64,000 bases of DNA from a phage: sequence record PZ256263.1; one strand, 5' to 3'. Positions 2,465 to 55,256 of this stretch are shown here, one piece after another. The stretch's first letter is position 1, and each line of letters opens with the position of its first letter. The notes below the pieces were generated by a model. The model was not told the DNA's origin, ran no database searches, and saw nothing but the letters and a program-made list of their open reading frames with translations. Made by a program: the position numbers and the translations under genes.

Positions 2465-2830
2465 ATGGGTATTATCAAATTTGTAGTAAAAGTATTCGTA
2501 GGCTTCTTTCTGGTTGTTCTTCTGTTAGGTGTCCTGTTATCGGCTATGGGTAGCGTTAAGGCTGCAACATTCTCCCCTGCTACGGTGGAAGGTTTACAGT
2601 GCACCTATTTGATAGAAAATTATGATACCGGTAAAAAGTCACCTAAAGTTATTATTTTGCATGTAAATGATTTCGATCATGTGCAATCAGATAGTAAAAC
2701 TATTCTACTGGTAAATGAAACTACTGGTAAACAAATAACGGTCGATCACTTGATGCGCTCATCGTTAACGCTCTTTGATGAGTCTATGAATGAAATTGAG
2801 TCCGGTAATGGTCAATGTGTAAATCCATAG
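2465..2830 (+). CDS. Small membrane or secreted protein (121 aa)
   Basis: N-terminal hydrophobic stretch FVGFFLVVLLLGVLLSAMG; RBS-like AAAGG upstream. Confidence 0.55.
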   Translation: MGIIKFVVKVFVGFFLVVLLLGVLLSAMGSVKAATFSPATVEGLQCTYLIENYDTGKKSPKVIILHVNDFDHVQSDSKTILLVNETTGKQITVDHLMRSSLTLFDESMNEIESGNGQCVNP

Positions 2831-2906
2831 GCTTAATCTTTCTCCTGTATTGTGCCGTGGTCATGCCTATGGTCATAATCTATCTGATGCTTTAAATCCT
2901 TCCTGT

Positions 2907-2936
2907 AAGCCTCCTAGTGAGGCTTTTCTATTTTCT
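2907..2936 (+). terminator. Rho-independent terminator-like hairpin
   Basis: AAGCCTC / GAGGCTT stem with 5-nt loop followed by TTCTATTTTCT. Confidence 0.55.
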
Positions 2937-3107
2937 AAGGTGATTGTATACCTTACTCCCTTTTAGCTCATTGTGATGCGTTATAGGCCGCTTGTTATCG
3001 CTTTACAAGCCTTTTCCTATGATGTATCACGTTCGCCCGCTCTTTTACCTTCCCATAGTGAAAAAGTTTAAAATATTTTGTTTTACCCTATTGCATCCCT
3101 CACTGAT

Positions 3108-3116
3108 TAATGTATA
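3108..3116 (+). promoter_or_regulatory. TAATGTATA motif (candidate promoter for the phage sigma factor)
   Basis: Exact TAATGTATA; the same motif recurs upstream of several genes. No ORF lies immediately downstream, so function here is uncertain. Confidence 0.3.
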
Positions 3117-3216
3117 CTTCATTTCATCGGGTACGATGTAAAACATACAAGGCAAGGAAACTTGCCCCGCTCTTTAAAAATCAGGCTAGAAAGTGAAAAT
3201 ATTCTTAAAAAGAGTA

Positions 3217-3245
3217 TTGACACCGAAAACAGCCTGATATATAGT
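3217..3245 (+). promoter_or_regulatory. Strong host sigma70-like promoter (TTGACA, 17 nt, TATAGT)
   Basis: Consensus -35 at 3217-3222, 17-nt spacer, -10 TATAGT at 3240-3245; AT-rich UP-like sequence upstream. Confidence 0.65.
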
Positions 3246-3848
3246 GAGCATAGTCAGCGATGACTTAAAAAATCCCGCTCTTTAAAAATATGATTTGTCT
3301 TACGGGTGGCGGCGACGTCATTACTATAAGGCGCTCAGTTAATCGGTAGAATTGATTCCTGATTCATACGTGACGCAGGCGGACAATAAGCAATATCAAT
3401 AAGCCTTATTTGTTCGATACTTTCAAAAGATTAATGCTTGAAAGCGCACTAGATTCCCTGAAAGACAAATCAGACTTATCATCTTGCCCTTTCGCATAGA
3501 TTCACGCGAGATAAGGGAAAGGAATTAAAAGAAGATGATAAAAAGAGTTGCAAACGTGGTTAAAGTAGTCCATACTAACCACAAGTTAGCAAAACATCGC
3601 TAACTAGTTCCCAAATCAACGTATCGCGGGAAAGGTGGCACATAGTGCAGCGATTAGTTCAGGTGTAGGCGGCCTGTTAATGAATCAGTAAGCCTTCAAT
3701 GTGACAGTGATTAGCAGACACTTTAAAAGGCTAAACGCTCTTTAACAATATGAATCATAAGTTAAGCCTCACCGCTTAATCTTCAATCAAATAAAGCTGA
3801 TTGATATATCCTCCCAATAGTGGGAACGACGAAAAAGATTAAAAAGCG

Positions 3849-3877
3849 GTTGACAGCGAAAACAACATGATTCATAA
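3849..3877 (+). promoter_or_regulatory. Strong host sigma70-like promoter (TTGACA, 17 nt, CATAAT)
   Basis: Consensus -35 at 3849-3854, 17-nt spacer, -10 CATAAT at 3872-3877; flanks resemble the promoter at 3217. Confidence 0.65.
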
Positions 3878-4801
3878 TGAGCACTCACTAAGCAAATCAT
3901 CGCTTCAGTGAAAAGCGTAACAACGGCTAACAGTTGCATAGTGTGAGAAAGCACACTGATAGATTTACCGCTCTTTAATAATTTAAACATTCTCCTATAT
4001 CGGTTGAATATGTTAGATGATAATAACCATCGGATAACATACCAGATAAAACGGCGTAAAACTCCCTAAATTATCAGGGTAAACAGTTTTACATTCCCTT
4101 ACTGGAAACGTCACCACTGATAAACAGATTCATCGAGTACACGCAAAGACTTAAGCTAATCGCCCACGGTTAAGGGTAGCGGCGGTCATCGCTAACATGG
4201 TGCTACGGTGAAAGAAGTTAATCAGGGTAGGCAATCCCGACGAATTAACGCTCAATTGAGAGCGGCGGGGAGTGGTTAAAAAGTGGCAAATTGCTATTTA
4301 ACAATAAGGTTTAGTGTGAACGTTTACGATGTGAACGGCTTGAGATTCATCTTATGATGAAAGTACATAGTCGGTTTATGTAGTAAACTTGCCGAAAGAT
4401 ATAAAACGTCGGAACATTAGACGGTCAATGACTCTTTCGCAATAGTATCCCGTAGTGGGCGATGACTAGCGATTGAGAGTTGATATAAAAGGATAGGCGA
4501 GAGCGAAAGCAAAGTAAACGATATTGCCGACGGTTACAATAACGTAACTAATTAGAGTCGGACGCACTGCCTTATTGTGATGATTGATCATCGCTATCAG
4601 GTCGGCTTCGTTTATAGCGACTAATTAAAGATACCAGATGAAACATCACGGATAAGGGGGCGGCAAGGTTAACTCCTGATAAGACCGCCCCACTTACCTA
4701 TAACTACTGAATAGTTAGCGGTTATAGTTAAGTTAATAGCGACTTAAACAAGCTCATAGAGAGCGGGGCAATAGCGCCCTTATAATTGAAAGGTGAATAT
4801 C

Positions 4802-5701
4802 ATGGCTAAAATCTTTAATCTGGTAAAAGAATCTGGTTTTAACGCACTGGCTAACAACATTCGTAGCAATAATGCGGCGATCAAACAAGATGTTTCTAAC
4901 TTCCTGTTAGGGCACTTGCAGCACTTCCGCAGTAACGGTAAAAAGCTGGACGTATTGCAGACGGCTGTTGACTTCCTGTTAACTGAACGTTTTCGTGATA
5001 TGGATGTTATCGCTACCGCAATTACTTTCTTAACTCCTATCAAGTTTAACACCGATGCGGCAAATGGTCGTAAAAAGTGGATTAATCTGGAAGGTGAGGC
5101 GAAAGCTAAAGAAGACGCGAAAGAAGCACAAATTAAGGCCAAAATGGAACAAAACCGCGCTCGCTGGTCAAACGCTTTCGAAAACTTCGCGTTAGGTCGT
5201 GAAATTGAAGTCGATAATCCTAACTTCTTCAAAGGTTGCAATGACAACGTAGCGGCACACCTGCAAATTCCGGCAAAGAATAAAGAAGACTTTAACCAAG
5301 ATATTTACGCTTTGGTTGAACGCTTGAATGCAATCCGTATTGAAGCCAAATTACTGGCTGATGAGCGCAACGGCGCAACTAGTGATAACACTATTGCCCT
5401 GAGCGAAGAGGTAGGAAAGGTTAAGAAATCTTTTGATTCACTCATCAAGAAAGTCACGGCCTCAACGGTAGCGATCTCTGATGACTACCTGATGAACGCA
5501 TCAAGCAAGGAATTGGAATCTCTCGATTCATACGCTGATGAAATGGAAAAGACTGTTGCAGCTATGCAGGAGAAGTTAGAAAGTCTGCGCGGTCGTATCT
5601 CTTCAACGGTTGCTACCCGTACCGAACAAGCGGCGAAAGCAGAAGAAGAAGAAGTATTGCGCAAAGCGGCTGAAATTATGGCAGCACGTCAGGCTGCATA
5701 A
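4802..5701 (+). CDS. Hypothetical early protein (299 aa), predicted helical/coiled-coil
   Basis: ATG at 4802 with AAAGGTGA RBS 6 nt upstream; followed by a strong terminator, suggesting a discrete highly expressed early unit. Confidence 0.7.
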   Translation: MAKIFNLVKESGFNALANNIRSNNAAIKQDVSNFLLGHLQHFRSNGKKLDVLQTAVDFLLTERFRDMDVIATAITFLTPIKFNTDAANGRKKWINLEGEAKAKEDAKEAQIKAKMEQNRARWSNAFENFALGREIEVDNPNFFKGCNDNVAAHLQIPAKNKEDFNQDIYALVERLNAIRIEAKLLADERNGATSDNTIALSEEVGKVKKSFDSLIKKVTASTVAISDDYLMNASSKELESLDSYADEMEKTVAAMQEKLESLRGRISSTVATRTEQAAKAEEEEVLRKAAEIMAARQAA

Positions 5702-7211: not shown

Positions 7212-7601
7212 ATGTTGACATTGACTATTTATTATGAGGCAGGGAATCAGCCAACCGCATGTAAAGCTATGGTTGCGGATACCGTGATAAATAGAATGGC
7301 CCAACGAAAACTGACCGCTGAACAGGTGATAAGACAAAAGAACCAGTTTGAGTGGATTCCGGTACTATTAAAACAGGAGAAACCTTATAAACGTTATGTA
7401 AAGCTGATTCGTGATAAAAATCCGATGACTAAGAAGGCCATTGGAGAAAGCGAGCGGCTGGCTAAACGTGCCCTTAAGAAGAATTATGTTCCGCTGTACA
7501 GTGGGACTTACTTTCAGAGTAAGAGCGAAGGGGTGCCAAAATGGTATGCCAATCCTATGTATTGTGGTGATTTAGTGTTCGATAATAGCTCTAGGGAATA
7601 A
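7212..7601 (+). CDS. SleB/CwlJ-like cell-wall hydrolase domain protein (129 aa)
   Basis: YYEAGNQ...VADTVINRM...VIRQKNQFEWIP...PKWYANP resembles the Hydrolase_2 (SleB/CwlJ) pattern by eye; start codon uncertain. Confidence 0.5.
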   Translation: MLTLTIYYEAGNQPTACKAMVADTVINRMAQRKLTAEQVIRQKNQFEWIPVLLKQEKPYKRYVKLIRDKNPMTKKAIGESERLAKRALKKNYVPLYSGTYFQSKSEGVPKWYANPMYCGDLVFDNSSRE

Positions 7602-7800
7602 TCACTAGTGCCAGATTTGACAAACTAAATTCCTTTATAAACCAACCACTTAGTAAATTTATTGAAAAAGATGGTAGTATTCTGGGACTATGGGTAATGC
7701 TCTGTATATAGACCCTTTGAAAATTTCTTAGAAAATAAGTTTACTAAATATAACTTACTTAAATAATATTACTTTTAATCTCTGATAAAGGGTAAACAAT

Positions 7801-8097
7801 ATGACTTTAGAAGTATATAAATTCCTTTTTGTAAGCTGTTTAACTATCAGCGTTCTAGGGTTTATTATTCTCAGAAACAAAGCAGCAAGCTGGGAGAGAA
7901 TGTACAAATCTCTAGTCCGAGTGGATGAGATGTATAATGAGAAAGTTAAAGCAACTCTTAACGATCTTATTATGCAAGTTGAGGACAGAAACAAGCGTCT
8001 TCAGAATCTCAACCATGAAGTATTACGCCTTGCTCGTGCTAATGAAGATTTGCGAGTAGCCATTGCTAAACAGCAGGAGATTAACAGTGAAGCATGA
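7801..8097 (+). CDS. Hypothetical membrane-anchored coiled-coil protein (98 aa)
   Basis: N-terminal hydrophobic segment then a heptad-like charged region. Confidence 0.5.
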   Translation: MTLEVYKFLFVSCLTISVLGFIILRNKAASWERMYKSLVRVDEMYNEKVKATLNDLIMQVEDRNKRLQNLNHEVLRLARANEDLRVAIAKQQEINSEA

Positions 8098-8344
8098 TAT
8101 CAATACAGCACCTGTGGTTAAGCAGCTTAAAGATCTAAGAGTGGGGGATGTTTTTGAAACTGTACCACATAAGAATAAGTTGTATCTTGTAGTAAAACTC
8201 GATTCTTCAACTGTTTATCAAGCCCAATGGAAACCTGATAAAAAGGTAGTAGTAGATCTTACTTCAGATAGAGTAACAATGTTGAGAAAAGATACTGTTG
8301 TTCAAATAGTTGATAATGTTCGTCTTACTAATAAGGTGGATTAA
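8087..8344 (+). CDS. Small paralogous protein, family A member 1
   Basis: Shares GDVF ... aromatic pair ... NLxTG-like pattern with 10 other ORFs; GTG at 8087 with CAGGAGA RBS (track start 8063). Confidence 0.5.
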   Translation: MKHDINTAPVVKQLKDLRVGDVFETVPHKNKLYLVVKLDSSTVYQAQWKPDKKVVVDLTSDRVTMLRKDTVVQIVDNVRLTNKVD

Positions 8345-8346
8345 CA

Positions 8347-8583
8347 GTGAAAGTTAATATTAAATCCGATCGTACAATGCTTCGCTTAAATAATATGAAG
8401 CCGGGCGTTCTATTTGAGCGTAAAGATTCCCTTTACATCAGAACCGACACTCTGTACGCAGATAATTATATCAACTGTGTTGATGTAGTAACTGGAAAGC
8501 TCATGCCTTTTAAACGGGATGAAGTCTGCCAAGTTCGTAGCGATCTCCACATAACTAACATAGAGGCTAAAGATGAAGATTGA
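8347..8583 (+). CDS. Small paralogous protein, family A member 2
   Basis: GTG start after AAGGTGGA; family A pattern (PGVLFERK ... LYIRT ... VDVVTGKL). Confidence 0.5.
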   Translation: MKVNIKSDRTMLRLNNMKPGVLFERKDSLYIRTDTLYADNYINCVDVVTGKLMPFKRDEVCQVRSDLHITNIEAKDED

Positions 8584-8824
8584 TCTTGAGATGAAAGCTA
8601 AAGAGTTGTGTGTGGGTGATTTGAAACTTGGTGATGTATTCCAAGTTAAGGCAACATGTATTGATTATTACATGATCGTTCAGCTATATACACCACATGT
8701 GTCAGAGACTGATCTTCGGAATGGTTGTGTAGTGCTTAGTTTAAGCACCAATCAAGTAATGAAGCTAGATTCAAACTTACCTGTTTCAGTTATCCATGAT
8801 GCAGTAATTACCAATCGGAAGTGA
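8573..8824 (+). CDS. Small paralogous protein, family A member 3
   Basis: LGDVFQV ... DYYMIV ... family A pattern. Confidence 0.55.
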   Translation: MKIDLEMKAKELCVGDLKLGDVFQVKATCIDYYMIVQLYTPHVSETDLRNGCVVLSLSTNQVMKLDSNLPVSVIHDAVITNRK

Positions 8825-8826
8825 AC

Positions 8827-9039
8827 ATGAACATTGAAAAGAAGGTTGTTGACGAGGCTGTTCAGTTACGATCTCTTGAAACACATGATGTATTTGTGTG
8901 GGGAGGTAGTCTGTTTCAGAAATCTGCTTATGCTGTAGAGGGTGGGGTTCGTTGTTTTAATATCTTCAACAATGAGATGCAAATCCTACCTAACTTCGCT
9001 CATGTGAATAAACTTATCCACCTTTCTATTTATCAATAA
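8827..9039 (+). CDS. Small paralogous protein, family A member 4 (divergent)
   Basis: ATG at 8827 after GGAAGTGA; weaker family A pattern (HDVFVWG). Confidence 0.45.
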   Translation: MNIEKKVVDEAVQLRSLETHDVFVWGGSLFQKSAYAVEGGVRCFNIFNNEMQILPNFAHVNKLIHLSIYQ

Positions 9040-9049
9040 GGGCAATTAG

Positions 9050-9268
9050 ATGGAAATTAAAGTAGTTGATTACCCTAAATATGCAAACGCAGAAGATGTC
9101 AAGGGCGGTGATGTTTTCTCTTACGATAGACGTTTCTGGCTGATGTTAGAAGATAAAACTCCTGATGGTTTGTGTAAGGCCGCTAACTTGAACAGTGGTT
9201 CTGTTGAAGTCTTTGGTCTATCAACAACTGTTATGCCACGTCCTGATCTGTGTTTATCTCAAAAGTAA
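9050..9268 (+). CDS. Small paralogous protein, family A member 5
   Basis: GGDVFSY ... FWLML ... ANLNSGSV family A pattern. Confidence 0.55.
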   Translation: MEIKVVDYPKYANAEDVKGGDVFSYDRRFWLMLEDKTPDGLCKAANLNSGSVEVFGLSTTVMPRPDLCLSQK

Positions 9269-9626
9269 CACCGACTTATAGCCCTTGTGCTTATCAGAGG
9301 GCTATGTGAGGGTGTTCCTCATTAACTTATTAATTCAGGCATATGCCACACCGCTAGGGAGAGCTTGCTCGAACATCCGGTGTTAGACTAAAACCTGTTA
9401 ATTTTCGAAAGACTTTCTGATATGTAGGGGTACATATTAGTTTGGGATTCAGGAGACTTCCTAGGGGTAGGGAGTCTTCACCAGTTGGAATAAGAGATAG
9501 CTCTAGAACCTGAACTCTTAGGCAGAGAAGGTCGGCAATGAGTACGCGGTCAGAATTAGTCTACTGACTAGGGCTATCCCTTATATCAACTGGCAATAAT
9601 GCCTCCACTAACAAAGAGAGATAGGT

Positions 9627-9767
9627 ATGAAAGTATCAACCAAACGTATGAACCGCCCTGAACGTATGGATGCAGTAGCTAACGGTGCTCTGAAACTGGA
9701 AGGCTTCTGGGTTCATGCAATGTCAGCCATCCGTAACAAGCAAGGTAATTGGACCTATGCCGGTTAA
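9627..9767 (+). CDS. Small hypothetical protein (46 aa)
   Basis: ATG preceded by a GAGAGA-like RBS; below the ORF-track size cutoff. Confidence 0.35.
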   Translation: MKVSTKRMNRPERMDAVANGALKLEGFWVHAMSAIRNKQGNWTYAG

Positions 9768-9789
9768 ATCAGTCCATGTAATAGGTATG

Positions 9790-9966
9790 CGAGAGATCAT
9801 TCGCATTGCCTTAATGGAACACACTGATCGCAACGCTCAACTAACGCAAATCTCTAAGTGTCTTAACTGTTCGAGAGATGTGGCTAAGGAATTAATGTTC
9901 GCATTCCTTTATAATGCAGAAGACGAAACGCTACAGAATCATCTGATTCGTGGTGTGAGTCAATAA
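9790..9966 (+). CDS. Small hypothetical protein, possible HTH (58 aa)
   Basis: Internal ATG of track ORF 9715-9966 chosen to avoid overlap; start uncertain. Confidence 0.35.
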   Translation, partial: REIIRIALMEHTDRNAQLTQISKCLNCSRDVAKELMFAFLYNAEDETLQNHLIRGVSQ

Positions 9967-9971
9967 AGAGA

Positions 9972-10000
9972 GGCTGCCTTCGGGCGGCCTTTGTTGTTTT
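9972..10000 (+). terminator. Rho-independent terminator
   Basis: GGCTGCC-ttcg-GGCGGCC stem (one G-U pair) followed by TTTGTTGTTTT. Confidence 0.6.
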
Positions 10001-10043
10001 AATTAAGGGACAACTCTTACTTAAACTAACAAGAGGTGCTTAT

Positions 10044-10391
10044 ATGAGATGCATAGTTAAAAGTTGGGAAACTAAATCGGGTCTTCGTGCTGTGATTATG
10101 CACATGAACAATTCCCACTTATGTGGGTATGTAGAGTTACCAGATAGTTTGAAACATAAAAACTTCACCGGATATAACGGAGAGGAAAAGGTTGTTTGTT
10201 ATGTGAACGTTCATGGTGGTGTCACATGGCAAGACACACTTGAAGAGATGGGTGGTTTGGATACAATCGGATTTGATTGTGCCCATGCAGGCGATAAGAC
10301 ACAGTTCAACCCTAACGGGGTTCCAAGAACAGAAGCGTTCTGCATCAACGAGTGCGAACAAATGGCTGAACAACTGAGAGATCTTGAATAA
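10044..10391 (+). CDS. Hypothetical protein (115 aa)
   Basis: ORF with AAGAGG RBS; His/Cys/Asp-rich, possible metal site; no confident family. Confidence 0.5.
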   Translation: MRCIVKSWETKSGLRAVIMHMNNSHLCGYVELPDSLKHKNFTGYNGEEKVVCYVNVHGGVTWQDTLEEMGGLDTIGFDCAHAGDKTQFNPNGVPRTEAFCINECEQMAEQLRDLE

Positions 10392-10569
10392 AATGTCTAA
10401 GCAAACAATCAAAAATACGCAAGCTGGTTACTCTTATGTTAACTCTCCTTGCTGTGGTGCTCGTGTTAATCTGGTTAAGGAAGAGGTTCGTATCGTTCAG
10501 CGTGGCGCTACTGTTGTTCGTTCATGCTGTGTCTGTGGTAATGATATCTTTATTAAAGGTAAAGTATGA
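10384..10569 (+). CDS. Small zinc-ribbon-like protein (61 aa)
   Basis: Two Cys pairs (CCGAR ... CCVCGND). Confidence 0.45.
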   Translation: MNKMSKQTIKNTQAGYSYVNSPCCGARVNLVKEEVRIVQRGATVVRSCCVCGNDIFIKGKV

Positions 10570-10817
10570 AAAACTTCCAAGCTGCACCAATAACTAAAGT
10601 GATCGAAGTTGATGATGCGATGATGACTGTTCCTCTGAACACTCGTTACATTGCAATTGACAAGATGGGTTATGTATGGGCTTGGAAGATTAAGCCTAGT
10701 TATAACGCATTGTTTGATGAGTTTGTTTGTACTGGTACTTACAGTCCTACATTCTTGGGTTTATTTGGAGAGTTTGATGGTAAGCATAAAATCATCACTC
10801 TCCCTGCTTGTGCTTGA
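10566..10817 (+). CDS. Hypothetical protein (83 aa)
   Basis: ATGA overlap with the upstream gene. Confidence 0.45.
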   Translation: MKNFQAAPITKVIEVDDAMMTVPLNTRYIAIDKMGYVWAWKIKPSYNALFDEFVCTGTYSPTFLGLFGEFDGKHKIITLPACA

Positions 10818-10824
10818 GGTTATT

Positions 10825-10989
10825 ATGTTCAAGTGGTTTAAACGTTTCTTCCATCTCCATGATTGGGAGACAATAAAAGAAATTCGTTTACACATATATA
10901 ATGAGATTGGTCAAATAGAAGACACAGGTACTCGTTATATACTTCGATGTAAAACATGTGGTCATATCACCAAGCGAGATATGATCTAA
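10825..10989 (+). CDS. Small hypothetical protein (54 aa) with C-terminal CxxC
   Basis: ATG at 10825 after GAGGTTATT; ends just upstream of the tRNA. Confidence 0.4.
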   Translation: MFKWFKRFFHLHDWETIKEIRLHIYNEIGQIEDTGTRYILRCKTCGHITKRDMI

Positions 10990-10997
10990 ATAATTCT

Positions 10998-11073
10998 GCG
11001 CTCTTAGCTCAATGGATAGAGCAGTAGCCTTCTAAGCTATTGGTTACAGGTTCGAGTCCTGTAGGGCGCACCA
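10998..11073 (+). tRNA. tRNA-Arg (anticodon UCU), 76 nt including CCA
   Basis: Hand-folded cloverleaf: acceptor GCGCTCT/AGGGCGC, D-arm GCTC-AATGGAT-AGAGC, anticodon loop CTTCTAA, T-arm ACAGG-TTCGAGT-CCTGT, discriminator A then CCA. Confidence 0.85.
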
Positions 11074-11093
11074 AAATCAAATAGGAGGTGGTT

Positions 11094-11393
11094 ATGAGTT
11101 GGGGTGGTGTAATATCCTTAATCTGTATCTTCCTTGTCTGTGTGGCCCTTACAGGCTGCGTACAGAGCCGTCCTGATGGGTGGTGTGCAGTAGCAGTGGA
11201 TGGTATTTGTGTATCTCGCTGGCATAAAGGTGAGAAGGTTCCTTCTGGTGAGATTGATATGCGCTGGAACGGGGCAACCTGCTCTAATGCTAACCCTTCT
11301 ATTAATGAAGAGAAGTCTACGCCAGACAATGTTGTGATTGATACAGCGTTGTGGTGTGGTGGCTCTACGATTACAACCGGTAAGGAGTGGTAA
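11094..11393 (+). CDS. Cys-rich lipoprotein (99 aa)
   Basis: AGGAGG RBS; signal peptide with lipobox LTGC (ICIFLVCVALTGC); about 10 Cys in the mature part. Confidence 0.55.
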   Translation: MSWGGVISLICIFLVCVALTGCVQSRPDGWCAVAVDGICVSRWHKGEKVPSGEIDMRWNGATCSNANPSINEEKSTPDNVVIDTALWCGGSTITTGKEW

Positions 11394-11394
11394 T

Positions 11395-11643
11395 ATGACA
11401 GCTCATTATTGGAATACAAAGAAGCTTCTTGAAGAGATGGCTGGGGGTAGTAGAGTACAGCTGATTTCTATGCTTAGGATGGATGCTCGCTCTTTACGTT
11501 TCCAAGTAAAGATTGGTAACTTCAGTGATGGTCTTTATTACACACTGAAGGAAAGAATTAAGAAGACTCACTTTATTATGTACGGAATCAAACCGAGAAC
11601 ATATGTTAACTACATGTATTGGGATACATGCTACGATAATTGA
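11395..11643 (+). CDS. Hypothetical protein (82 aa)
   Basis: ATG at 11395 after AAGGAG. Confidence 0.5.
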   Translation: MTAHYWNTKKLLEEMAGGSRVQLISMLRMDARSLRFQVKIGNFSDGLYYTLKERIKKTHFIMYGIKPRTYVNYMYWDTCYDN

Positions 11644-11649
11644 GGTTAT

Positions 11650-11872
11650 TATGTTATTAGAAGCTAAGCAAACATTACCAGTAGTTCCTTTGTCTACACT
11701 TCTTAGTGGGAGTGCTTTTAGACATGATAATGGTTTTTGGATTAAGGGCGACCAAGAGGTTGGAGGATATATTACCTGCATCAACATCTGCAACGGCGTT
11801 GTTGACGGATTTCGTCCAGCCGCTGAAGTCACTCCTCAATCCAACGCAAAGGTTGTAGGTTTGGTATATTAA
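11650..11872 (+). CDS. Small paralogous protein, family A member 6
   Basis: About 60 percent identical by eye to 11882-12103 (FWIK, GYITC, NG-VDG-RP, VGLVY). Confidence 0.55.
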
Positions 11873-11881
11873 GGAACTTAT

Positions 11882-12103
11882 ATGAAATTAGATTCTAAAC
11901 AATCCCTTAAAACTGTTGAACTGTCCACACTGCCAAACGGAAGTATTTTTGGTCATGATAAACACTTCTGGATTAAAACAGACTACTTGAACGATGGGTA
12001 TATTACCTGCGTCAACCTTTGGAATGGTTCAGTGGATGGCTATCGCCCTAGTGCAAAAGTAGTCCCTCAGCCTGATGCAAAGGCTATAGGTTTGGTCTAC
12101 TAA
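11882..12103 (+). CDS. Small paralogous protein, family A member 7
   Basis: Tandem duplicate of 11650-11872. Confidence 0.55.
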   Translation: MKLDSKQSLKTVELSTLPNGSIFGHDKHFWIKTDYLNDGYITCVNLWNGSVDGYRPSAKVVPQPDAKAIGLVY

Positions 12104-12112
12104 GGAGTTCAT

Positions 12113-12286
12113 ATGAGCTGTTATGGTGGAGGTGAAGTTTATGATGACGATGATATGGAATCTAATGGGGAATGCCCCGATTGCGGGTGTGAGACGTTTG
12201 ATGGTGTATCAGTGTACCCTACCTGTAGTTACTCACCAGTGATTTGTAAAACATGTGGAGATCAACCTTGTGATCAGTCCTGTTAG
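12113..12286 (+). CDS. Small Cys-rich protein (57 aa)
   Basis: AAGGAG RBS; CPDCGC ... CKTCGDQPCDQSC; acidic DDDD run. Confidence 0.5.
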   Translation: MSCYGGGEVYDDDDMESNGECPDCGCETFDGVSVYPTCSYSPVICKTCGDQPCDQSC

Positions 12287-12287
12287 T

Positions 12288-12503
12288 ATGTTAATTATTT
12301 ACCTGATAGGTGTGGTGTTATCAGGTGTGTTCGTTAAGGTTGTTGATATTAAAGATGATCAAGTCTTCAGACATTGGAGCGGATATCCAAATCTCAGCAA
12401 AATAGCAATTGTCCTTTTCTTGTGGCCTATCATTGTTGCGTTGCTTATAATTATAGGACTTTGGACTTTGCTATGGGAGTTAATTCTTCCTGTCAAAAAG
12501 TAA
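12288..12503 (+). CDS. Small membrane protein (about 71 aa, two predicted TM helices)
   Basis: Hydrophobic segments IIYLIGVVLSGVFV and IAIVLFLWPIIVALLIIIGLWTLLW. Confidence 0.45.
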   Translation: MLIIYLIGVVLSGVFVKVVDIKDDQVFRHWSGYPNLSKIAIVLFLWPIIVALLIIIGLWTLLWELILPVKK

Positions 12504-12798
12504 GAGCTTATCGTGAAGGATTCTTACGAGAGTCCTTTGAGATAGGACTTCAGATCTCCTATCAAACTAACATTCATGTAACTAGCCCATAAGGGCGTTA
12601 CCCTTTAATAACCCAGCCCACTAAGGGGGCGGGAGTTTAGTGCTGGATGAGCATAACGCTTATTCCTACAAAGGCAACCGATTGTTAGATCTTACATGCA
12701 AACTTAATTAATAGGATAAGGGAGGATTCGTCCCCTCCCCCTATTTTATTGAATCTTTATCTAAGCAAGTCTTATATAAATGTTTAATTGGGGGATGT

Positions 12799-13110
12799 AT
12801 GAAAGCTCGAAGAACTATATGGACTCCGATACAGATTGAAAATCTTCGGAGATTAATCAAAGAATACTCTGTCCAAGAGATTGCTCAGATTATGAATGTA
12901 ACGGAGAATGCAGTTAATACAGCTTGCACTAAGTTCGGAATCTCTAGAGCTGTAATCCGAGTTAAGTGGTCTAAAGAAGAAGATCAGTTCCTTATCCGTA
13001 ATGCTGGGTTCATGTCTATTCAGAGAATGGCTGACATGCTCGGTAGAAGTTATGCTGCTGTACAGAACAGGGCATGTATGCACCTTAACATTAGCCTCAA
13101 ACTTAAATAG
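12799..13110 (+). CDS. Putative DNA-binding protein with two HTH-like repeats (103 aa)
   Basis: Internal duplication W..x..L..Lxxxxxx..IAxxM.....AV. reminiscent of sigma region 4 / Myb-like HTH. Confidence 0.45.
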   Translation: MKARRTIWTPIQIENLRRLIKEYSVQEIAQIMNVTENAVNTACTKFGISRAVIRVKWSKEEDQFLIRNAGFMSIQRMADMLGRSYAAVQNRACMHLNISLKLK

Positions 13111-13118
13111 GAATCAAT

Positions 13119-13373
13119 ATGAAAGTTAATGAGTTAAACAAAACTACCAAGACTGTGAAACTGCACACTCTGAAAAAGGGTGATACATTCCGTTTAGAGG
13201 AGAATGGTCCAATCCATATGGTTTGTACTGCGGCATCTACTAACTGGGTAGAAGTTGCACGAGATCGAGTAGTGTGTGTCAGGCTGGAAGATGGTAGTCT
13301 GAGCGGTCCAGTTGAAGGTATCTCTGTTATTCCTGTTAAGGTTGAAGCTAACGTTATTAAGGACTCTAAATGA
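13119..13373 (+). CDS. Small paralogous protein, family A member 8
   Basis: KKGDTFRLE ... family A pattern. Confidence 0.5.
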   Translation: MKVNELNKTTKTVKLHTLKKGDTFRLEENGPIHMVCTAASTNWVEVARDRVVCVRLEDGSLSGPVEGISVIPVKVEANVIKDSK

Positions 13374-13615
13374 AGATCATCCCAAAGAAAAAGGATAATA
13401 CGGTACGGTTGGAAACGATCATTCCCGGAAACCCCTTCGTGGTTCAGCACGGAAGTGCCTCTCCTCAATATTATATGAGGGTTGAAAATGCTTCTGGTAA
13501 TATCCGTATAGCCAGTGGCTGGGTTCCTGTGGTAAACCTTTCCACAGGTGTACTATCTGTTAAAGGTCTTGATGATCAGGTAGAAATGATTCGTATGTCA
13601 GTGGTTCAGGAGTAG
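13370..13615 (+). CDS. Small paralogous protein, family A member 9
   Basis: QYYMRV ... VVNLSTGVL family A pattern. Confidence 0.55.
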   Translation: MKIIPKKKDNTVRLETIIPGNPFVVQHGSASPQYYMRVENASGNIRIASGWVPVVNLSTGVLSVKGLDDQVEMIRMSVVQE

Positions 13616-13617
13616 GT

Positions 13618-13866
13618 ATGAGCATCATTAATATTAAGGTTAAGGGCAAGGAGGAAATAGTCCTCCGTGTTAGAGATCTAAATATGTCAGATGTGTTCAC
13701 TCTCCAAGAGTGTCAGAATCAAAAGATTTATATGCTTACAGCTAAAAGCAGGGGCTGTCAACCTGCTGGAGCTGTTAACCTAGGCACTGGAGAACTACGT
13801 GTCATCTCTGGTGATATGGTTGTTGGTGAGAAGTTTATTAAGGCTGAAATCATCTTAACTTCATAG
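13618..13866 (+). CDS. Small paralogous protein, family A member 10
   Basis: SDVFTLQ ... IYMLT ... AVNLGTGEL family A pattern. Confidence 0.55.
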   Translation: MSIINIKVKGKEEIVLRVRDLNMSDVFTLQECQNQKIYMLTAKSRGCQPAGAVNLGTGELRVISGDMVVGEKFIKAEIILTS

Positions 13867-13874
13867 GTGATCTA

Positions 13875-14087
13875 ATGACACAAGAAGAGAAAGATATACT
13901 CATCCAGAATGCGTATCTACTGTTTTCCTCTGAGGATGTTCTGTTCGATCAGCTTTCTAAATTGTGGAAAGTGTCCGAAGAAGAGACTAAAGAGAAGTTT
14001 TATTCTGGCATAACAGAAGATTACAAATCTTTTCTTGGTGAGGTGCTGAGAGATCGGCATGTGTATCTAAGTAATTACGCCTGTTAA
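13875..14087 (+). CDS. Hypothetical acidic protein (70 aa)
   Basis: ORF with GGTGA-like RBS. Confidence 0.45.
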   Translation: MTQEEKDILIQNAYLLFSSEDVLFDQLSKLWKVSEEETKEKFYSGITEDYKSFLGEVLRDRHVYLSNYAC

Positions 14088-14320
14088 TAGGAAAACAAGT
14101 GATCACATTTAATGATTCTACAGAAGAAATGACCAACATGAAAGGCTTCGGTCAACGACAGCCTGACGGTTCAATTATCTGGTTCGTAAATGGACAGAAA
14201 AAGGTAGCTAAATAAGCCCTCTTCTCTCCTCCTTTTAGTACTATGACGCCTCTCTGTGGGCGGCCCAATTTGCGTAGGGAATTCCCTCTACGCAGTCATG
14301 ATTTTTAAGGAATTTCCCCT

Positions 14321-14554
14321 ATGTCTAAAGTAAGTGCAATTGATGCAATCCGTCAACCGTTCCAGTTCCAATCCAAATCAACCCAAACCTTCAGCGAGCC
14401 TAAGCAAATTCGCTTGGGTGGCACAGAGAAGACTGTGTTTGATCTGGCTAAAAACAAGAGCGTTACCGTAGTTGATGGTGGCACTCTGGTTAACGTTTCC
14501 CATCGTATCCGCACTGGCAAAACTGCCAAAGATCGTGCTAAGAAAGGTGAGTAA
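14321..14554 (+). CDS. Hypothetical protein (77 aa)
   Basis: ORF with AAGGAA RBS. Confidence 0.45.
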   Translation: MSKVSAIDAIRQPFQFQSKSTQTFSEPKQIRLGGTEKTVFDLAKNKSVTVVDGGTLVNVSHRIRTGKTAKDRAKKGE

Positions 14555-14796
14555 TGAAAATAGGGAAACCAGCTAAGGATGTTCTAGCGAAGATTGGTGA
14601 TATCTCTATTGGGGAAGTTTTCTCAGCTGAGCACTTTTCAAGTTACTACATGAGAATCCCTGACACTAAAGTTGAGGGTTGCATCATCCCTGCCAACGCA
14701 GTTAACCTGAACACAGGACACCTGTCTGCATTCAAACCTGATTCACAGGTTACTGAAATCAAAGATGCCTACCTCGCCTTTGGTGGGGATAAGTAG
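14554..14796 (+). CDS. Small paralogous protein, family A member 11
   Basis: IGEVFSAE ... SYYMRI ... AVNLNTGHL family A pattern. Confidence 0.55.
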   Translation: MKIGKPAKDVLAKIGDISIGEVFSAEHFSSYYMRIPDTKVEGCIIPANAVNLNTGHLSAFKPDSQVTEIKDAYLAFGGDK

Positions 14797-15556: not shown

Positions 15557-16750
15557 ATGTTTCCAGTAACATTAGAAGATACTGAAGGTAATGTTTTAAC
15601 GGTCAACCCTCCTTGTTATGGGTTCCTTCAGCTTCGCAACTATAACGGTGGCGTTGATGAAGATGATGACGAAGATGAATACTTCGACCCTAACATGTAT
15701 GAGGCAACTCATGGGTGGAATATGCACGTTCGAGTGTGGCATGAAGAAGCTAACGTTCGTAGTGCTGATGGGGAAGAGTTCCTGTTGAGCCGAGAGATGG
15801 ATATGTGTAAAATCAAGCATATCTGGAACTCCGGAACTCACATGAAGATGTTAGGTTTTAGACGTTGGCGTGATGAAAAACCTGTATCCGCAGCTTTAGG
15901 TTGGGGTGCTATTGATTACGAAGGCGAGCTTAAAAACAACATTGAACGTTGGAATGACAAAAACCCTGAACATCGAACCACACCTCGTGCTGTACTGGAA
16001 GCTATGGAAGCATTTGTGGACAAAGATCGTCCCTCCTGTTTACGCTGGCACGATAAAGGTTTTATGGGGGTAGCAACTGAAAATGTTCCTGCTGATCGTT
16101 GTCTATTCTATTTGATGTTAGATCGAACCTTCTATTGTGAAGATGAAGAGAGTCAAGTTGAAACCTTCCTCCACAAATGGTTGGTTGAAGGCTGGACAAT
16201 CCTTCAGTCTTATGTTTACTCACGAATGGTTAGCACTTACACTAACCTCTTGGGTGAAACGAAAGCAACTCTGGTTGGTAATGATTGGGATGCTTGTATC
16301 TTCCCAGCGTCACTATTTACAGTCGGCATGGCTGATAAATACGCTGAAGCATTTCAAGTGCCTTGGCGTCAACAGTCGTATAGAGACGGGTGTGGTCACT
16401 TCCGTGATGAAGACTTTAAGTGGATTCATTATGAGAACGATGAAACAGCAGAATTGCGAGTTAACAACTCAATGTTCTTGCCAGTGATGCACCCCGATCT
16501 AGTAAAAGATGGGTCAGAGATACTTAAAGGTGATAATCTTTTGGTTAACTTTACCCGTCGCGTGTCTAAAAATGAGAGAACAGCTAACAGGCTAATCTAC
16601 GGCATTCGTGCCGAGGCTAAAGACCTGTTCAACATCTACAACATTATTCAGCGATTTAGTAGTGGAACTCTGGACCAAAGTTCGGAGTATTCAGTGATTC
16701 CATCCTCTGAGTGGGATGGTATTATGAGCGGATTATTTTTAGGAAAATAA
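15557..16750 (+). CDS. Hypothetical protein (397 aa), first gene of the amidoligase module
   Basis: Acidic DEDDDEDE run and conserved Cys/His/Trp; no family recognised by eye; contiguous with downstream module genes. Confidence 0.55.
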   Translation: MFPVTLEDTEGNVLTVNPPCYGFLQLRNYNGGVDEDDDEDEYFDPNMYEATHGWNMHVRVWHEEANVRSADGEEFLLSREMDMCKIKHIWNSGTHMKMLGFRRWRDEKPVSAALGWGAIDYEGELKNNIERWNDKNPEHRTTPRAVLEAMEAFVDKDRPSCLRWHDKGFMGVATENVPADRCLFYLMLDRTFYCEDEESQVETFLHKWLVEGWTILQSYVYSRMVSTYTNLLGETKATLVGNDWDACIFPASLFTVGMADKYAEAFQVPWRQQSYRDGCGHFRDEDFKWIHYENDETAELRVNNSMFLPVMHPDLVKDGSEILKGDNLLVNFTRRVSKNERTANRLIYGIRAEAKDLFNIYNIIQRFSSGTLDQSSEYSVIPSSEWDGIMSGLFLGK

Positions 16751-16760
16751 AAGGTTAGTT

Positions 16761-17732
16761 ATGTCAATCTCCACAACGATCGTACCTCAGAATCTTCAAC
16801 AAGATTTAGGGGAACAGAAGTTCTTAGGTCGTGGGTGCTTCGGTATTCACAACTACATGCAAGGCCAGTGTGTAAATGACATTAATGGTGAAGTTATCAC
16901 GGAAGAAGGGCGCTATCGTCGCTTCAACCGCGATATCAACTTGCAACTGGAGATGTTGAATTACTGGACTCACTCTTTTCATGGTCATGTTGCATCCGAT
17001 ATTGAAAAGAACTTGATTGAAACAGCGGACATTATGAACTCTATGTCTTGCTATCGTGATGTATTTACAATCACTTCAGCGAACAGTGTTGCTGTCAATC
17101 TTCGTGAGCATCCAGCAGATCAGATCTTCACAGGACTTATGCTCTTCCGTAGCATTCTGGAAGGGCAGTATCGTGGAATGGATTTCCTAGCAGAAGGAAT
17201 TGAAGACAGGGAAGAGTGGCTGAAGCGTAAACGCATCGGAATCGCTCTAGTGTTAGCTGGGTTAGGTCGTGACTTCTTCGGTGGGTGGTCTCAACGAGGA
17301 ATAGCCAATGGGAATAGCGAGAGCACCTCTATTGTTATTAATAACAATATGTCAGCAGCAGCATTCCTTCCTTTGGTTGTAGACTCTGATGAATACACGA
17401 AACAAGTATGGGTTCAAAATCCCTTCGGTGTTGGTGACAATGAGAATGGTTATGTTCGTAACCATAACCCAGAGGCCTTACGAAGATTTGCTCGTGCTAA
17501 AGATCAAGACCCAACTGAGTATGCAACAATGTCAGAGTGGTTAAGACTCTGGTCCATCTGTTATGGTCACAAACGTGAAGCAATAGACGACAAGTTGGGA
17601 AACATTACAGTACAAAACTTTACAGCCCGACTGATTCAAAGAACTGGAGCAGATTCCGGTCTTACTCTTGAAGAAGTTGGTAACACAATCTCATCTCTCT
17701 TTTCTGAACTAGTGGAGTATTACAATGACTAA
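16761..17732 (+). CDS. Hypothetical protein (323 aa), amidoligase module
   Basis: Tight spacing with neighbours; no recognisable motif. Confidence 0.55.
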   Translation: MSISTTIVPQNLQQDLGEQKFLGRGCFGIHNYMQGQCVNDINGEVITEEGRYRRFNRDINLQLEMLNYWTHSFHGHVASDIEKNLIETADIMNSMSCYRDVFTITSANSVAVNLREHPADQIFTGLMLFRSILEGQYRGMDFLAEGIEDREEWLKRKRIGIALVLAGLGRDFFGGWSQRGIANGNSESTSIVINNNMSAAAFLPLVVDSDEYTKQVWVQNPFGVGDNENGYVRNHNPEALRRFARAKDQDPTEYATMSEWLRLWSICYGHKREAIDDKLGNITVQNFTARLIQRTGADSGLTLEEVGNTISSLFSELVEYYND

Positions 17733-35408: not shown

Positions 35409-35663
35409 ATGTCTATTGTAAAAATCGTAAATATCATTGATGTAACTCGTACCGGTAAGACTATCAGTTGGAAATTCACCAATAAGCATAGAGGTTCAGA
35501 GAACATCATTCGTTATATGATTCAACAAAACCCAAATACAGCTCGCACTAACGTACTCCTTCGAGGAGCTGATGGAAAATTTATTTCTTATAAGAATAAG
35601 AACGTAGAAAAATCTTTCCGTGTTGCAGTAGAAAACCTCATCCCATTCCCTAAAGGAGTTTAA
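35409..35663 (+). CDS. Small paralogous protein, family C member 1 (84 aa)
   Basis: Shares TARTNVLLRGADGKFISYK ... ENLIPFPKG with 35665-35949. Confidence 0.5.
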   Translation: MSIVKIVNIIDVTRTGKTISWKFTNKHRGSENIIRYMIQQNPNTARTNVLLRGADGKFISYKNKNVEKSFRVAVENLIPFPKGV

Positions 35664-35664
35664 T

Positions 35665-35949
35665 ATGAATAAGTTAGCTATGGTTCAGATTCGAGACACA
35701 TACCCTAATCGCCCAGAACAGAAACCACGTACTTGGTCTTACCTACTAGCTGAGAGTAAGACTATTGACAACTTCTCTGTAGGGATTGATACTATCCCGA
35801 CCAGTATCACTTTGCTTCCTCACAAAACAGCCAGAACTCATGTGATGTTACGAGACAGCAAAGGTAAATTTATCTCTTATCGTGATTCACGAATCAATAA
35901 TGAGATTAAATCTGCTATGGAATTTTTGATGCCATTCCCAAGAGGTTGA
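35665..35949 (+). CDS. Small paralogous protein, family C member 2 (94 aa)
   Basis: TARTHVMLRDSKGKFISYR ... EFLMPFPRG. Confidence 0.5.
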   Translation: MNKLAMVQIRDTYPNRPEQKPRTWSYLLAESKTIDNFSVGIDTIPTSITLLPHKTARTHVMLRDSKGKFISYRDSRINNEIKSAMEFLMPFPRG

Positions 35950-53222: not shown

Positions 53223-54191
53223 TTAAGTACTAGCCAACCCACCGATTACACCCCCAGCTAATGCACCCCAAGGCCCAAAGGAAGAGCCAGCTGCTGCACC
53301 ACTCATAGTTCCACCAAGGAAACCACCTTTGCCACCAGATGTTTTAGTAGTTGTAGTTTGTCCGAGAGCACCGTTAAGTACACCTGCTGCACCGAGTTGG
53401 TTATTGATATCTTGCCATCCCCAATTAGCTGCGTTCTGAGCATTCTGGTAGGCATTATCATATTCATTCTGTTGTTGCTGTTGTTGCTGCAACCCTGCAT
53501 TCCATTGATTCATTATTTGCTGTTGAGACAAATTAGCACCCTGCTGACCTAGGTTAGAAAGGTTAGAACCAATATTAGAAAGACCAGAGAGAGCAGCTGC
53601 CTGATTCTGTCTATTACCAGAGAGGATGCTTTCAGCTTGGCTAATAGCCGAGTTATAGGCACTATTGGTAATATCTGTTGCTTGGCCTTGCATCTGATTC
53701 AGAGCATCACCTTGGGCAAAAGACTTAGCCATACGAGCACCTGAACCTTGTTGACCAGCATACTGTTGAGCTAACTGAGGAAGAGCATTACGTGCCAAGT
53801 TCTGTTGAACCTGTTCATTATTAGCTGTAATGGCTGCTTGCACAGCGTCATCATCATACAGTTGACCAGCGAGAGCACCAATCTGTTCTCCAGTAATCCC
53901 ACCTTGTCCAGAGAGGCTCTGATAGCCTTTATAGGCATTATCCAGATACCCTAACCCTTGACCTGCTGCATCCATGTATTGCTGTGAGAGAGTGCCTAAA
54001 GCGCCAGATTGTGCTAGGTTATTAAGTGCCTCTGTCTGATTATTATTAAACCCTACATTGTCACGATAAACATAATCCCCTGAACTAGTATTACCAATCT
54101 GTTGGTTAAGCTGGTCAATATACTGTTGAATGTATTCAGGGCGAATCATTTGGGAAGTAGTTTTACTACCCCCGCCTCCGAAAAGTCCCAT
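53223..54191 (-). CDS. Q/N/G/A-rich low-complexity virion protein (322 aa)
   Basis: Strong compositional bias (QQQQQ, GxG runs). Confidence 0.5.
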   Translation of the reverse strand: MGLFGGGGSKTTSQMIRPEYIQQYIDQLNQQIGNTSSGDYVYRDNVGFNNNQTEALNNLAQSGALGTLSQQYMDAAGQGLGYLDNAYKGYQSLSGQGGITGEQIGALAGQLYDDDAVQAAITANNEQVQQNLARNALPQLAQQYAGQQGSGARMAKSFAQGDALNQMQGQATDITNSAYNSAISQAESILSGNRQNQAAALSGLSNIGSNLSNLGQQGANLSQQQIMNQWNAGLQQQQQQQNEYDNAYQNAQNAANWGWQDINNQLGAAGVLNGALGQTTTTKTSGGKGGFLGGTMSGAAAGSSFGPWGALAGGVIGGLAST

Positions 54192-54203: not shown

Positions 54204-55256
54204 TTAGTTTGCTCCAAATGCCCCTAAGACACCACCTAAGATATTACTACCTGCTGTGGATAACCAGTTAGACTGACCTTTCTGTTGAGAAAGGTTAGAA
54301 CCTCCAATCATAGGACCAGCCATTCCAGATTGCCCACCTGAGTTGTTATAGGAACTCCAAGCATTCTGAGTCTGTTGGTTAGGAGAGAAAGCACCCATAC
54401 GACCTGCAATACCTAATCCAGTGATACCAGCACCTAGGAGCTGTTGTCCAGTATTAACCCCCGGAGCAGCATTCTTAATCGTGTACCCAGCCATTGGGCT
54501 TACACTATTTAATACATTAAGTTGGTTGTTAAGCTGATTCCACCCATACTGTTGAGAGCCAATAGCGTTCTGCCAATTAATATCAGCTTGAGCTTGGGCT
54601 TGTTGCTGTTGTAGATTACCAGCCATGAGTTGATTCTGGATAGCTTGTTGAGTTGCCTGAACACCTTGAGCACCAAGATTGAGATTCTGTCCAGCCAATC
54701 CTGACTGAGCACCAAGTAAGCCCCTCTGGAAGTTTTGGTCTTGTTGAAGAGCACTGATTCCCATATTCTTGCCACTGATAGTACGAGCTAAGTTTGTATT
54801 AGCACTGTTCAGAGCAGCACCTTGAGCAGCAGCTCTACGGAGAGAACCTGAATCAGAACCATTTCCGAGGGATACATTGGAAGCTGCTTTGCTAGTAGCT
54901 TGTGCAAGGGCTGAGTTATTCAAACCTTTACTAAAGTTATTAACCCCTTCAGCTGTTACTCCACCACCATTGACAATATTCTGATACTGCTGTGCAAGAG
55001 AGTTTAATTGGTCCAACCCTTGCTGTGTACGAGGCGTGTACATATCAGCCAATTGCTTCTGAGTAGTAGAAGCTGCTAAGTTGTTCAGAGCACCCTGTTG
55101 GTTGCCATTAAACCCAGCCAGTTGTTGGGAGATGAATCCCGGATCGTTGTTCTGCATATTCTGAGCATTAGCAACAATCTGCTTCAGCAGGGCATCAACC
55201 TGAGAGGAAGGGGCCACTGTGGTTTTGCTAGAAGCTGATTTTCCAAATAAAGACAT
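54204..55256 (-). CDS. Q/N/G/A-rich low-complexity virion protein (350 aa)
   Basis: Same composition as 53223-54191; possible paralog. Confidence 0.5.
   Translation of the reverse strand: MSLFGKSASSKTTVAPSSQVDALLKQIVANAQNMQNNDPGFISQQLAGFNGNQQGALNNLAASTTQKQLADMYTPRTQQGLDQLNSLAQQYQNIVNGGGVTAEGVNNFSKGLNNSALAQATSKAASNVSLGNGSDSGSLRRAAAQGAALNSANTNLARTISGKNMGISALQQDQNFQRGLLGAQSGLAGQNLNLGAQGVQATQQAIQNQLMAGNLQQQQAQAQADINWQNAIGSQQYGWNQLNNQLNVLNSVSPMAGYTIKNAAPGVNTGQQLLGAGITGLGIAGRMGAFSPNQQTQNAWSSYNNSGGQSGMAGPMIGGSNLSQQKGQSNWLSTAGSNILGGVLGAFGAN

Follow-up and report, generated by a model that had tools for sequence, protein, structure and literature searches.

The question raised by this locus is whether eleven small open reading frames (ORFs) lying between positions 8087 and 14796 of a stretch of phage DNA (sequence record PZ256263.1) constitute one protein family and, if they do, which function such a set of paralogs could serve. 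The stretch analyzed, referred to here as the window, comprises 64,000 nucleotides (nt) and belongs to a Kuravirus (phiEco32-like) phage, with 99.3% identity to Escherichia phage ev_rybdy3 and ~91-95% identity along 72-80% of its extent to further Kuravirus phages (among them DE5, SGF2, NJ01, Paul and SU10). An initial annotation had grouped the ORFs, on the basis of shared motifs, as copies of a small domain evolving under diversifying selection. The reading we favour, tentatively and with slightly less than even confidence, is that these early Kuravirus genes encode SH3-like barrels that have no enzymatic activity and serve as modules for binding different partners. What this reading says on structure and evolution is firm, and we infer what it says on function, namely the binding activity, the difference in partners and a purpose in host takeover or anti-defence.

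The eleven ORFs are all located on the + strand and encode products of 70-85 amino acids (aa; ~8-9.5 kDa). Translation starts at GTG in the ORFs beginning at 8087 and 8347 and at ATG in the other nine, and a purine-rich Shine-Dalgarno-like motif is found 5-12 nt upstream of each. They are arranged in an array of five (A, 8087-9268), a pair (B, 11651-12103), an array of three (C, 13119-13866) and a singleton (14554-14796), with start/stop junctions between the extremes of an 11-nt overlap and a 10-nt gap; the tight coupling and tandem layout previously described hold, as do the coordinates of ten of the ORFs; the remaining one had been placed at 11650, which is out of frame, its true start being 11651. 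The motifs on which the grouping was based are also present in the alignment: F23 is invariant and G20, within the G(D/E)xF motif, is conserved in nine of the eleven, followed by an aromatic/hydrophobic triplet (YYM, FWI, IYM or LYL) and a (V)NLxTG-like turn. Pairwise identity is just 16-26% for most pairs, and all-versus-all BLASTP of the 323 ORFs of the window gave nine significant paralog pairs, seven of them inside the family. In a leave-one-out analysis, a profile built from the other members was compared each time with the 640 stop-to-stop segments obtained from the six frames of the window. Outside the training set, the top match was in every case the held-out member (E from 5e-14 to 7e-3), and the best non-family segment gave E values of 0.1-3. 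The likeness is thus far beyond chance and the eleven ORFs make up one paralogous small-domain family, to which a broader profile added no twelfth member in the window.

Orthologs of each gene were compared in five related genomes (phiEco32, SU10, Paul, NJ01 and EP335). In array A, member 1 (8087..8344, +, 85 aa, GTG start; leave-one-out E 4.8e-6; a match to phrog_9955) overlaps the upstream gene by 11 nt and has an ortholog in Paul (87-88% identity), an allele of ~33-35% identity in the same slot of SU10 and NJ01, and none in phiEco32 and EP335. Member 2 (8347..8583, +, 78 aa, GTG start; E 2.8e-7) is retained with 91-99% identity and a ratio of nonsynonymous to synonymous substitution rates (dN/dS) of 0.02-0.10 in the four Kuravirus genomes compared. 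It shares an 11-nt overlap with member 3 (8573..8824, +, 83 aa; E 2.8e-9), whose orthologs are 98% identical in Paul and NJ01 and 58-70% identical in SU10, phiEco32 and EP335. The most divergent protein is member 4 (8827..9039, +, 70 aa; E 7e-3), in which THDVF replaces GDVF and which scored 11.6 bits versus 4.4 for the top non-member; among the five genomes its ortholog is found only in NJ01, with 100% identity. Member 5 (9050..9268, +, 72 aa; E 5.5e-8) is 97-99% identical in phiEco32, SU10, NJ01 and EP335, with dN/dS of 0.02-0.03. The two proteins of array B, members 6 (11651..11872, +, 73 aa; E 1.6e-4 with both array-B members withheld) and 7 (11882..12103, +, 73 aa; E 8e-9), are 59% identical and represent the only recent duplicate pair in the family; orthologs of member 7 show 81-100% identity and dN/dS of 0-0.14. 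Array C opens with member 8 (13119..13373, +, 84 aa; E 5e-6), which is 94-98% identical in SU10 and Paul and 60% in EP335; identity in phiEco32 and NJ01 is just 29-30%, which indicates that the slot has been replaced there. A 4-nt ATGA overlap joins it to member 9 (13370..13615, +, 81 aa; E 3.3e-8), with orthologs of 96-99% identity in phiEco32, Paul and NJ01 and 68% in SU10 and EP335, followed by member 10 (13618..13866, +, 82 aa; E 7e-6), for which identity is 94% at most and 48% at least in the genomes compared. Member 11, the singleton (14554..14796, +, 80 aa; E 5.3e-14), shares 1 nt with the gene upstream of it (14321-14554) and has an ortholog only in EP335 among the five genomes, with 92% identity.

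Taken slot by slot, identity to the window thus goes from 100% to ~30%, or the ortholog is absent, and the breaks coincide with gene borders; in NJ01, four adjacent genes show 97%, 30%, 99% and 55% identity. Copy number is 9 in phiEco32 (two of them partial), 9 in SU10, 8 in Paul, 10 in NJ01, 11 in EP335 and 11 in this phage. Eleven copies had been considered unusual for a genome of this size; such a number is not peculiar to this phage, 8-11 being carried by the Gordonclarkvirinae. Orthologs of at least 80% identity were retained in 45% of the gene-by-genome cells for the family and in 70% for the other early genes (Fisher p = 0.004, with cells that are not independent). The proposal of ongoing diversifying selection is not supported at the level of whole genes. 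Pooled, pairwise and gene-wide dN/dS values (Nei-Gojobori method) were 0.079 for the 25 ortholog pairs with at least 80% identity (dS 0.35) and 0.18 for the 16 pairs with 40-80%, no higher than those of neighbouring non-family early genes (0.10 and 0.28, respectively), so that the orthologs are under purifying selection. Positive selection acting on a few sites may be hidden by gene-wide values. Paralogs share 42% identity in 24 core columns and 12% in the remaining ones, whereas within each ortholog line the non-core positions show 68-87% conservation, which implies that each paralog keeps its own surface. In sequence terms, this conservation pattern is that of one scaffold with distinct, maintained surfaces. 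The data show old divergence plus high turnover.

Structures were predicted with AlphaFold2 (AF2) for member 11, from an alignment of 27 sequences, and for member 7, from 125 diverse sequences. Both models are all-beta. The first has a predicted local distance difference test (pLDDT) score of 77, and the second is a five-stranded barrel with pLDDT 87.5 (above 94 for residues 10-60) and a predicted template modelling score of 0.71. In these models the fold is an SH3-like small beta-barrel, which superposes on known SH3-like domains. The ~24 conserved positions correspond to core and turns (L..L..G[DE].F, the aromatic triplet, NLxxG and a late V), and in the alignment of the paralogs gaps are concentrated after the triplet and before the NLxxG turn, that is, in the beta3-beta4 hairpin of the model. 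Across the 125 diverse members, F23 is the one position that never varies, M1, G20, G49 and V60 come close to invariance, and no conserved polar, active or ligand site is present in that alignment. Nor do the members have a charge in common, their isoelectric points being spread between 4.9 and 9.5.

The known SH3-like barrels nearest in fold are the C-terminal domain of ribosomal protein L2, domain I of EF-P/eIF5A (KOW-like), Tudor domains and the RNA polymerase-interacting domains of CarD/UvrD. This brings up an alternative, that the family consists of nucleic-acid-binding barrels which, like KOW, Tudor, L2 C-terminal and EF-P domain I modules, bind RNA, DNA or the transcription-translation machinery and modulate expression or coat phage DNA. 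We regard it as doubtful, at roughly a one-in-five level of belief. The KOW (PF00467) and EF-P KOW-like (PF08207) models matched none of the eleven proteins at E <= 1 and none of ten distant relatives; there was no Pfam match to Tudor and no four-aromatic cage conserved across the 125 members; and the hallmarks of Sm/Hfq (LSM) proteins (N-terminal alpha-helix, bent five-stranded sheet, Sm1/Sm2 motifs) were not found. The family was accordingly filed under none of the classes KOW, Tudor and Sm, whose sequence tests it fails.

The lack of recognition reported in the initial annotation was borne out by scans of Pfam, NCBIfam and PADLOC, in which the eleven proteins had no match (E <= 0.1 for PADLOC); the same was true of Pfam for ten distant relatives, and the eleven counterparts in ev_rybdy3 are all annotated as "hypothetical protein". 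Every member does match at least one of the PHROG families 6570, 7431, 7832, 16423, 9955, 12612, 8365 and 33163, with best E values of 4e-9 to 2e-53. These families contain the same proteins as the window members, and distant metagenomic relatives match the same set. One superfamily is therefore divided in PHROGs into at least eight families of 'unknown function', unlinked and with no assigned fold, which are joined here by one profile. A word-indexed homolog search returned 98 clusters, whose named sources are phages of the Kuravirus group and none of which has a supported function, and an exhaustive profile search recovered 1,393 cluster representatives (50% identity) at E <= 1e-3. Details were taken from the best 150 of these, which are mostly 66-90 aa long and include 16 two-domain fusions and a few very large repeat proteins. 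Repeating the homolog search with the alignment of 125 sequences gave no further annotated or multi-domain relatives; tblastn of phage genomes with one metagenomic relative as query was negative; and the family profile produced only chance-level matches among PDB sequences (E >= 0.1). The names 'DNA helicase', 'two-domain glycosyltransferase', 'endolysin' and 'ZP domain' carried by some orthologs in GenBank and UniProt have no profile support and were rejected.

With the profile derived from the eleven window proteins alone, members were identified in other named phages: gp21 of N4 (E 4e-9; one member in the first 30 kb, the part scanned), ORF.65 of PaP3 (E 2e-6; one copy in the genome), gp7 of LUZ24 (E 1.8e-5; one clear member in the first 12 kb, the part scanned) and two proteins of Salmonella phage 7-11 (gp112 with E 1.7e-6), which became four with a broader profile, gp112, gp131 and gp133 being the ones named. 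Foldseek comparison with BFVD also matched N4 gp21 and PaP3 ORF.65, along with uncharacterised small proteins from phages of Vibrio, Dickeya, Klebsiella, Proteus, Morganella, Yersinia and Pseudomonas. PaP3 gp70.1, an RpoS binder of 131 aa, was considered as a relative and discarded, as it is missed by the family profile. In LUZ24, an unannotated ORF located between gp13 and gp14 (5100-5330) is matched weakly and in part by the profile (E 4.5e-5), and a group of 74-aa proteins formed by phi32_109 (21857-22081), SU10 gp107 and NJ01_125 matches its N-terminal half only (E ~1e-4); a gene of this last type is absent from the window. A temperate siphophage-like contig (integrase, S24 repressor) carries three consecutive family members and a contig of 29% GC four consecutive family domains, two of them fused. 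Judging from such contigs, tandem multiplicity is not confined to Kuravirus and recurs in unrelated phages. Three to five copies of the domain are present in each of the giant metagenomic proteins P0102 (3223 aa), P0113, P0163, P0180 and P0232; P0180 has a composition rich in proline, glycine and alanine. Pfam gave nothing for four giant repeat proteins bearing the family domain, with marginal matches only in P0102.

The reach of the profile also extends to cells. SprT-like metallopeptidases of Flavobacteriia (~197 aa) consist of PF10263 followed by an unannotated C-terminal domain of ~55 aa, which the family profile matches in 85 of 89 proteins, at ~20 bits. The hhalign comparison between the family and this domain gave a probability of 94% and E 1.5e-7 over 51 columns, and in the reciprocal search a profile of the SprT domain ranked two window members first, weakly (E 2e-3 and then 0.22). 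This domain would be a remote cellular relative of the phage family, differing from it in being cellular, fused to a protease and provided with a strongly basic hairpin. One protein, P0099, bears five tandem copies of the family domain and is chromosomal, adjoining SusC/SusD-type genes.

The family genes sit in a sigma70-type early region, which agrees with the host-takeover setting initially proposed for them. Three strong sigma70-like promoters on the + strand (3217-3245 and 3850-3878, both with 11/12 matches to the consensus, and 4757-4786, with 10/12) coincide in position with the three early promoters of phiEco32 and SU10 (PMC4281155, PMC8948821). In these two phages transcription of the early region is due to the host sigma70 RNA polymerase, acting at a promoter cluster, and nearly all of its genes are of unknown function (PMC9965538, PMC4281155, PMC8948821); in phiEco32-like phages it is generally assumed to serve host takeover (PMC8948821). 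The family would be transcribed from the 3217-4786 cluster, upstream of the early operon. The cluster is contained in a spacer of ~2 kb with few ORFs (2830-4790, +), and a fourth near-consensus sigma70-type promoter was detected at 672, on the same strand as the family. Among the 20 neighbouring genes scanned with Pfam, matches were obtained only for a cell-wall hydrolase (7212-7601), a phage lipoprotein (11094-11393) and a double helix-turn-helix (HTH) protein (12799-13110, +; Sigma70_r4_2, E 4e-8, plus HTH_11), encoded directly before array C and named in different records 'endonuclease' or 'D5-like transcriptional regulator'. A tRNA-Arg(TCT) gene (10998-11073, +), kept in most related phages, lies between arrays A and B. 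The intergenic gap 12503-12799 is ~244 bp longer in ev_rybdy3 (7504-8044), the sole sizeable indel in the 7 kb compared. A post-early module (15557-17732 and onward) that includes COOH.NH2 ligase, amidoligase, glutamine amidotransferase, a RimK-like ATP-grasp enzyme and gamma-glutamyl cyclotransferase is placed directly after the small-ORF early block in Kuravirus, 7-11, PaP3 and LUZ24. Elsewhere in the window, the + strand ORFs 35409-35663 and 35665-35949 form a second tandem pair (50% identity over 40 aa, BLASTP E 6e-12, no Pfam match), and 53223-54191 and 54204-55256 (-) are adjacent late-strand paralogs (32% over 275 aa, E 3e-11). A trio of small ORFs at 1642-2372 was considered as a second family and rejected, given their lack of mutual BLAST similarity.

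The small size of the domain, the maintenance of paralog-specific surfaces, the early setting and the turnover of slots fit a group of modules that bind different partners. In the mechanism we propose, the genes, whose transcription appears to begin at the early promoter cluster and to depend on the host sigma70 RNA polymerase, would be translationally coupled, as their tight junctions suggest. The ~24 core and turn positions would hold the barrel together, and variation among paralogs in hairpin length, in the remaining surface and in the tails would result in different binding, each paralog probably contacting, in the early phase of infection, a different macromolecule of the host or of its defences. 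The set would have grown by tandem duplication and is reshuffled slot by slot among related phages. A role in host takeover or anti-defence is possible, on circumstantial evidence: besides the early setting and the slot turnover, the Gordonclarkvirinae are reported to show remarkable resistance to restriction-modification with no known inhibitor (PMC11990801), and Nip, an early phage protein with SH3-like domains, inhibits a defence TIR NADase by direct binding (PMC11984713). A more specific proposal, which we consider unlikely although worth stating, would see the arrays as a battery of inhibitors built on one SH3-like scaffold and swappable as cassettes, each paralog neutralising a different defence or host factor and slots being exchanged to match hosts, with unrelated array-bearing phages doing likewise.

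Two other functional readings fare worse. The paralogs could be subunits of one hetero-oligomer, produced from coupled genes in fixed ratios and assembled edge to edge as in many small beta-barrels. The tight or overlapping junctions, the reappearance of tandem arrays in contigs of unrelated phages and the two-domain fusions would all be in line with such an assembly, which we nevertheless find improbable in view of the variable copy number and the replacement of individual slots. Still less credit can be given to the possibility that they are host shut-off toxins, each blocking an essential host process. The assumed function of the early region in host takeover (PMC8948821) and the growth inhibition caused by other small early proteins from a similar region of LUZ24 (gp4, gp6, gp9 and gp11; PMC4635203) point in that direction, but gp7, the sole homolog tested, inhibited neither growth nor biofilm formation when it was expressed in Pseudomonas aeruginosa as one of 13 early proteins (PMC4635203). 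This result speaks against a general toxin, and the family's high slot turnover and presence/absence variation would be unusual for indispensable functions. Finally, the notion that the likeness is due to chance or that the ORFs are not genes, to which the 16-26% identity of most pairs and the lack of any family member in the proteome of an SU10 lysate could lend some weight, is refuted by the leave-one-out results (E down to 5e-14, versus >= 0.1 for non-members), dN/dS of 0.08 at dS 0.35, the confident AF2 fold and the 1,393 related clusters in public data.

The sequences themselves are not new, having been deposited as hypothetical proteins and clustered in PHROGs. In the literature searched there was no description of them as one family or of their SH3-like fold; no account of their reach to N4 gp21, LUZ24 gp7, PaP3 ORF.65 and the SprT-associated domain; and none of recurrent tandem arrays or of slot exchange under purifying selection. 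A preprint on a screen of phage accessory genes mentions no phiEco32-like or N4-like phages. What emerges is a new sequence family of a common fold, unusually expanded. One profile links eight PHROGs, the N4, LUZ24 and PaP3 proteins and a cellular domain, in a large family that lies outside Pfam and NCBIfam and is arrayed in unrelated phages. If the paralogs are diversified binders, as we favour, they would offer eleven ready probes for E. coli targets and a candidate reason for the resistance of phiEco32-like phages, a component of therapy cocktails, to most of the defences tested. An inhibitor battery, if true, would explain the broad resistance of the Gordonclarkvirinae to restriction-modification and other defences, and if the proteins turn out to bind nucleic acids or to form a hetero-oligomer, a function would be defined for a common phage domain.

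Among known systems, VapX and Nip (phage Phi3T) are also small SH3-like-barrel binders. The analogy is limited to their mode of action, with no sequence relation detected; no VapD-like or other toxin gene, as would accompany a VapX-type antitoxin, was found by Pfam among the 20 neighbouring genes, and Nip, with 279 aa and an extra dimerisation domain, is unlike the 70-85 aa proteins described here. Parallels are also offered by the relatives in other phages: N4 gp21, LUZ24 gp7, PaP3 ORF.65 and the 7-11 proteins are, as here, encoded by small ORFs in early or left-arm regions, but they occur as single copies in PaP3 and in the stretches of N4 and LUZ24 that were scanned, and as two to four dispersed copies in 7-11, in contrast with the eight to eleven arrayed copies of the Gordonclarkvirinae.

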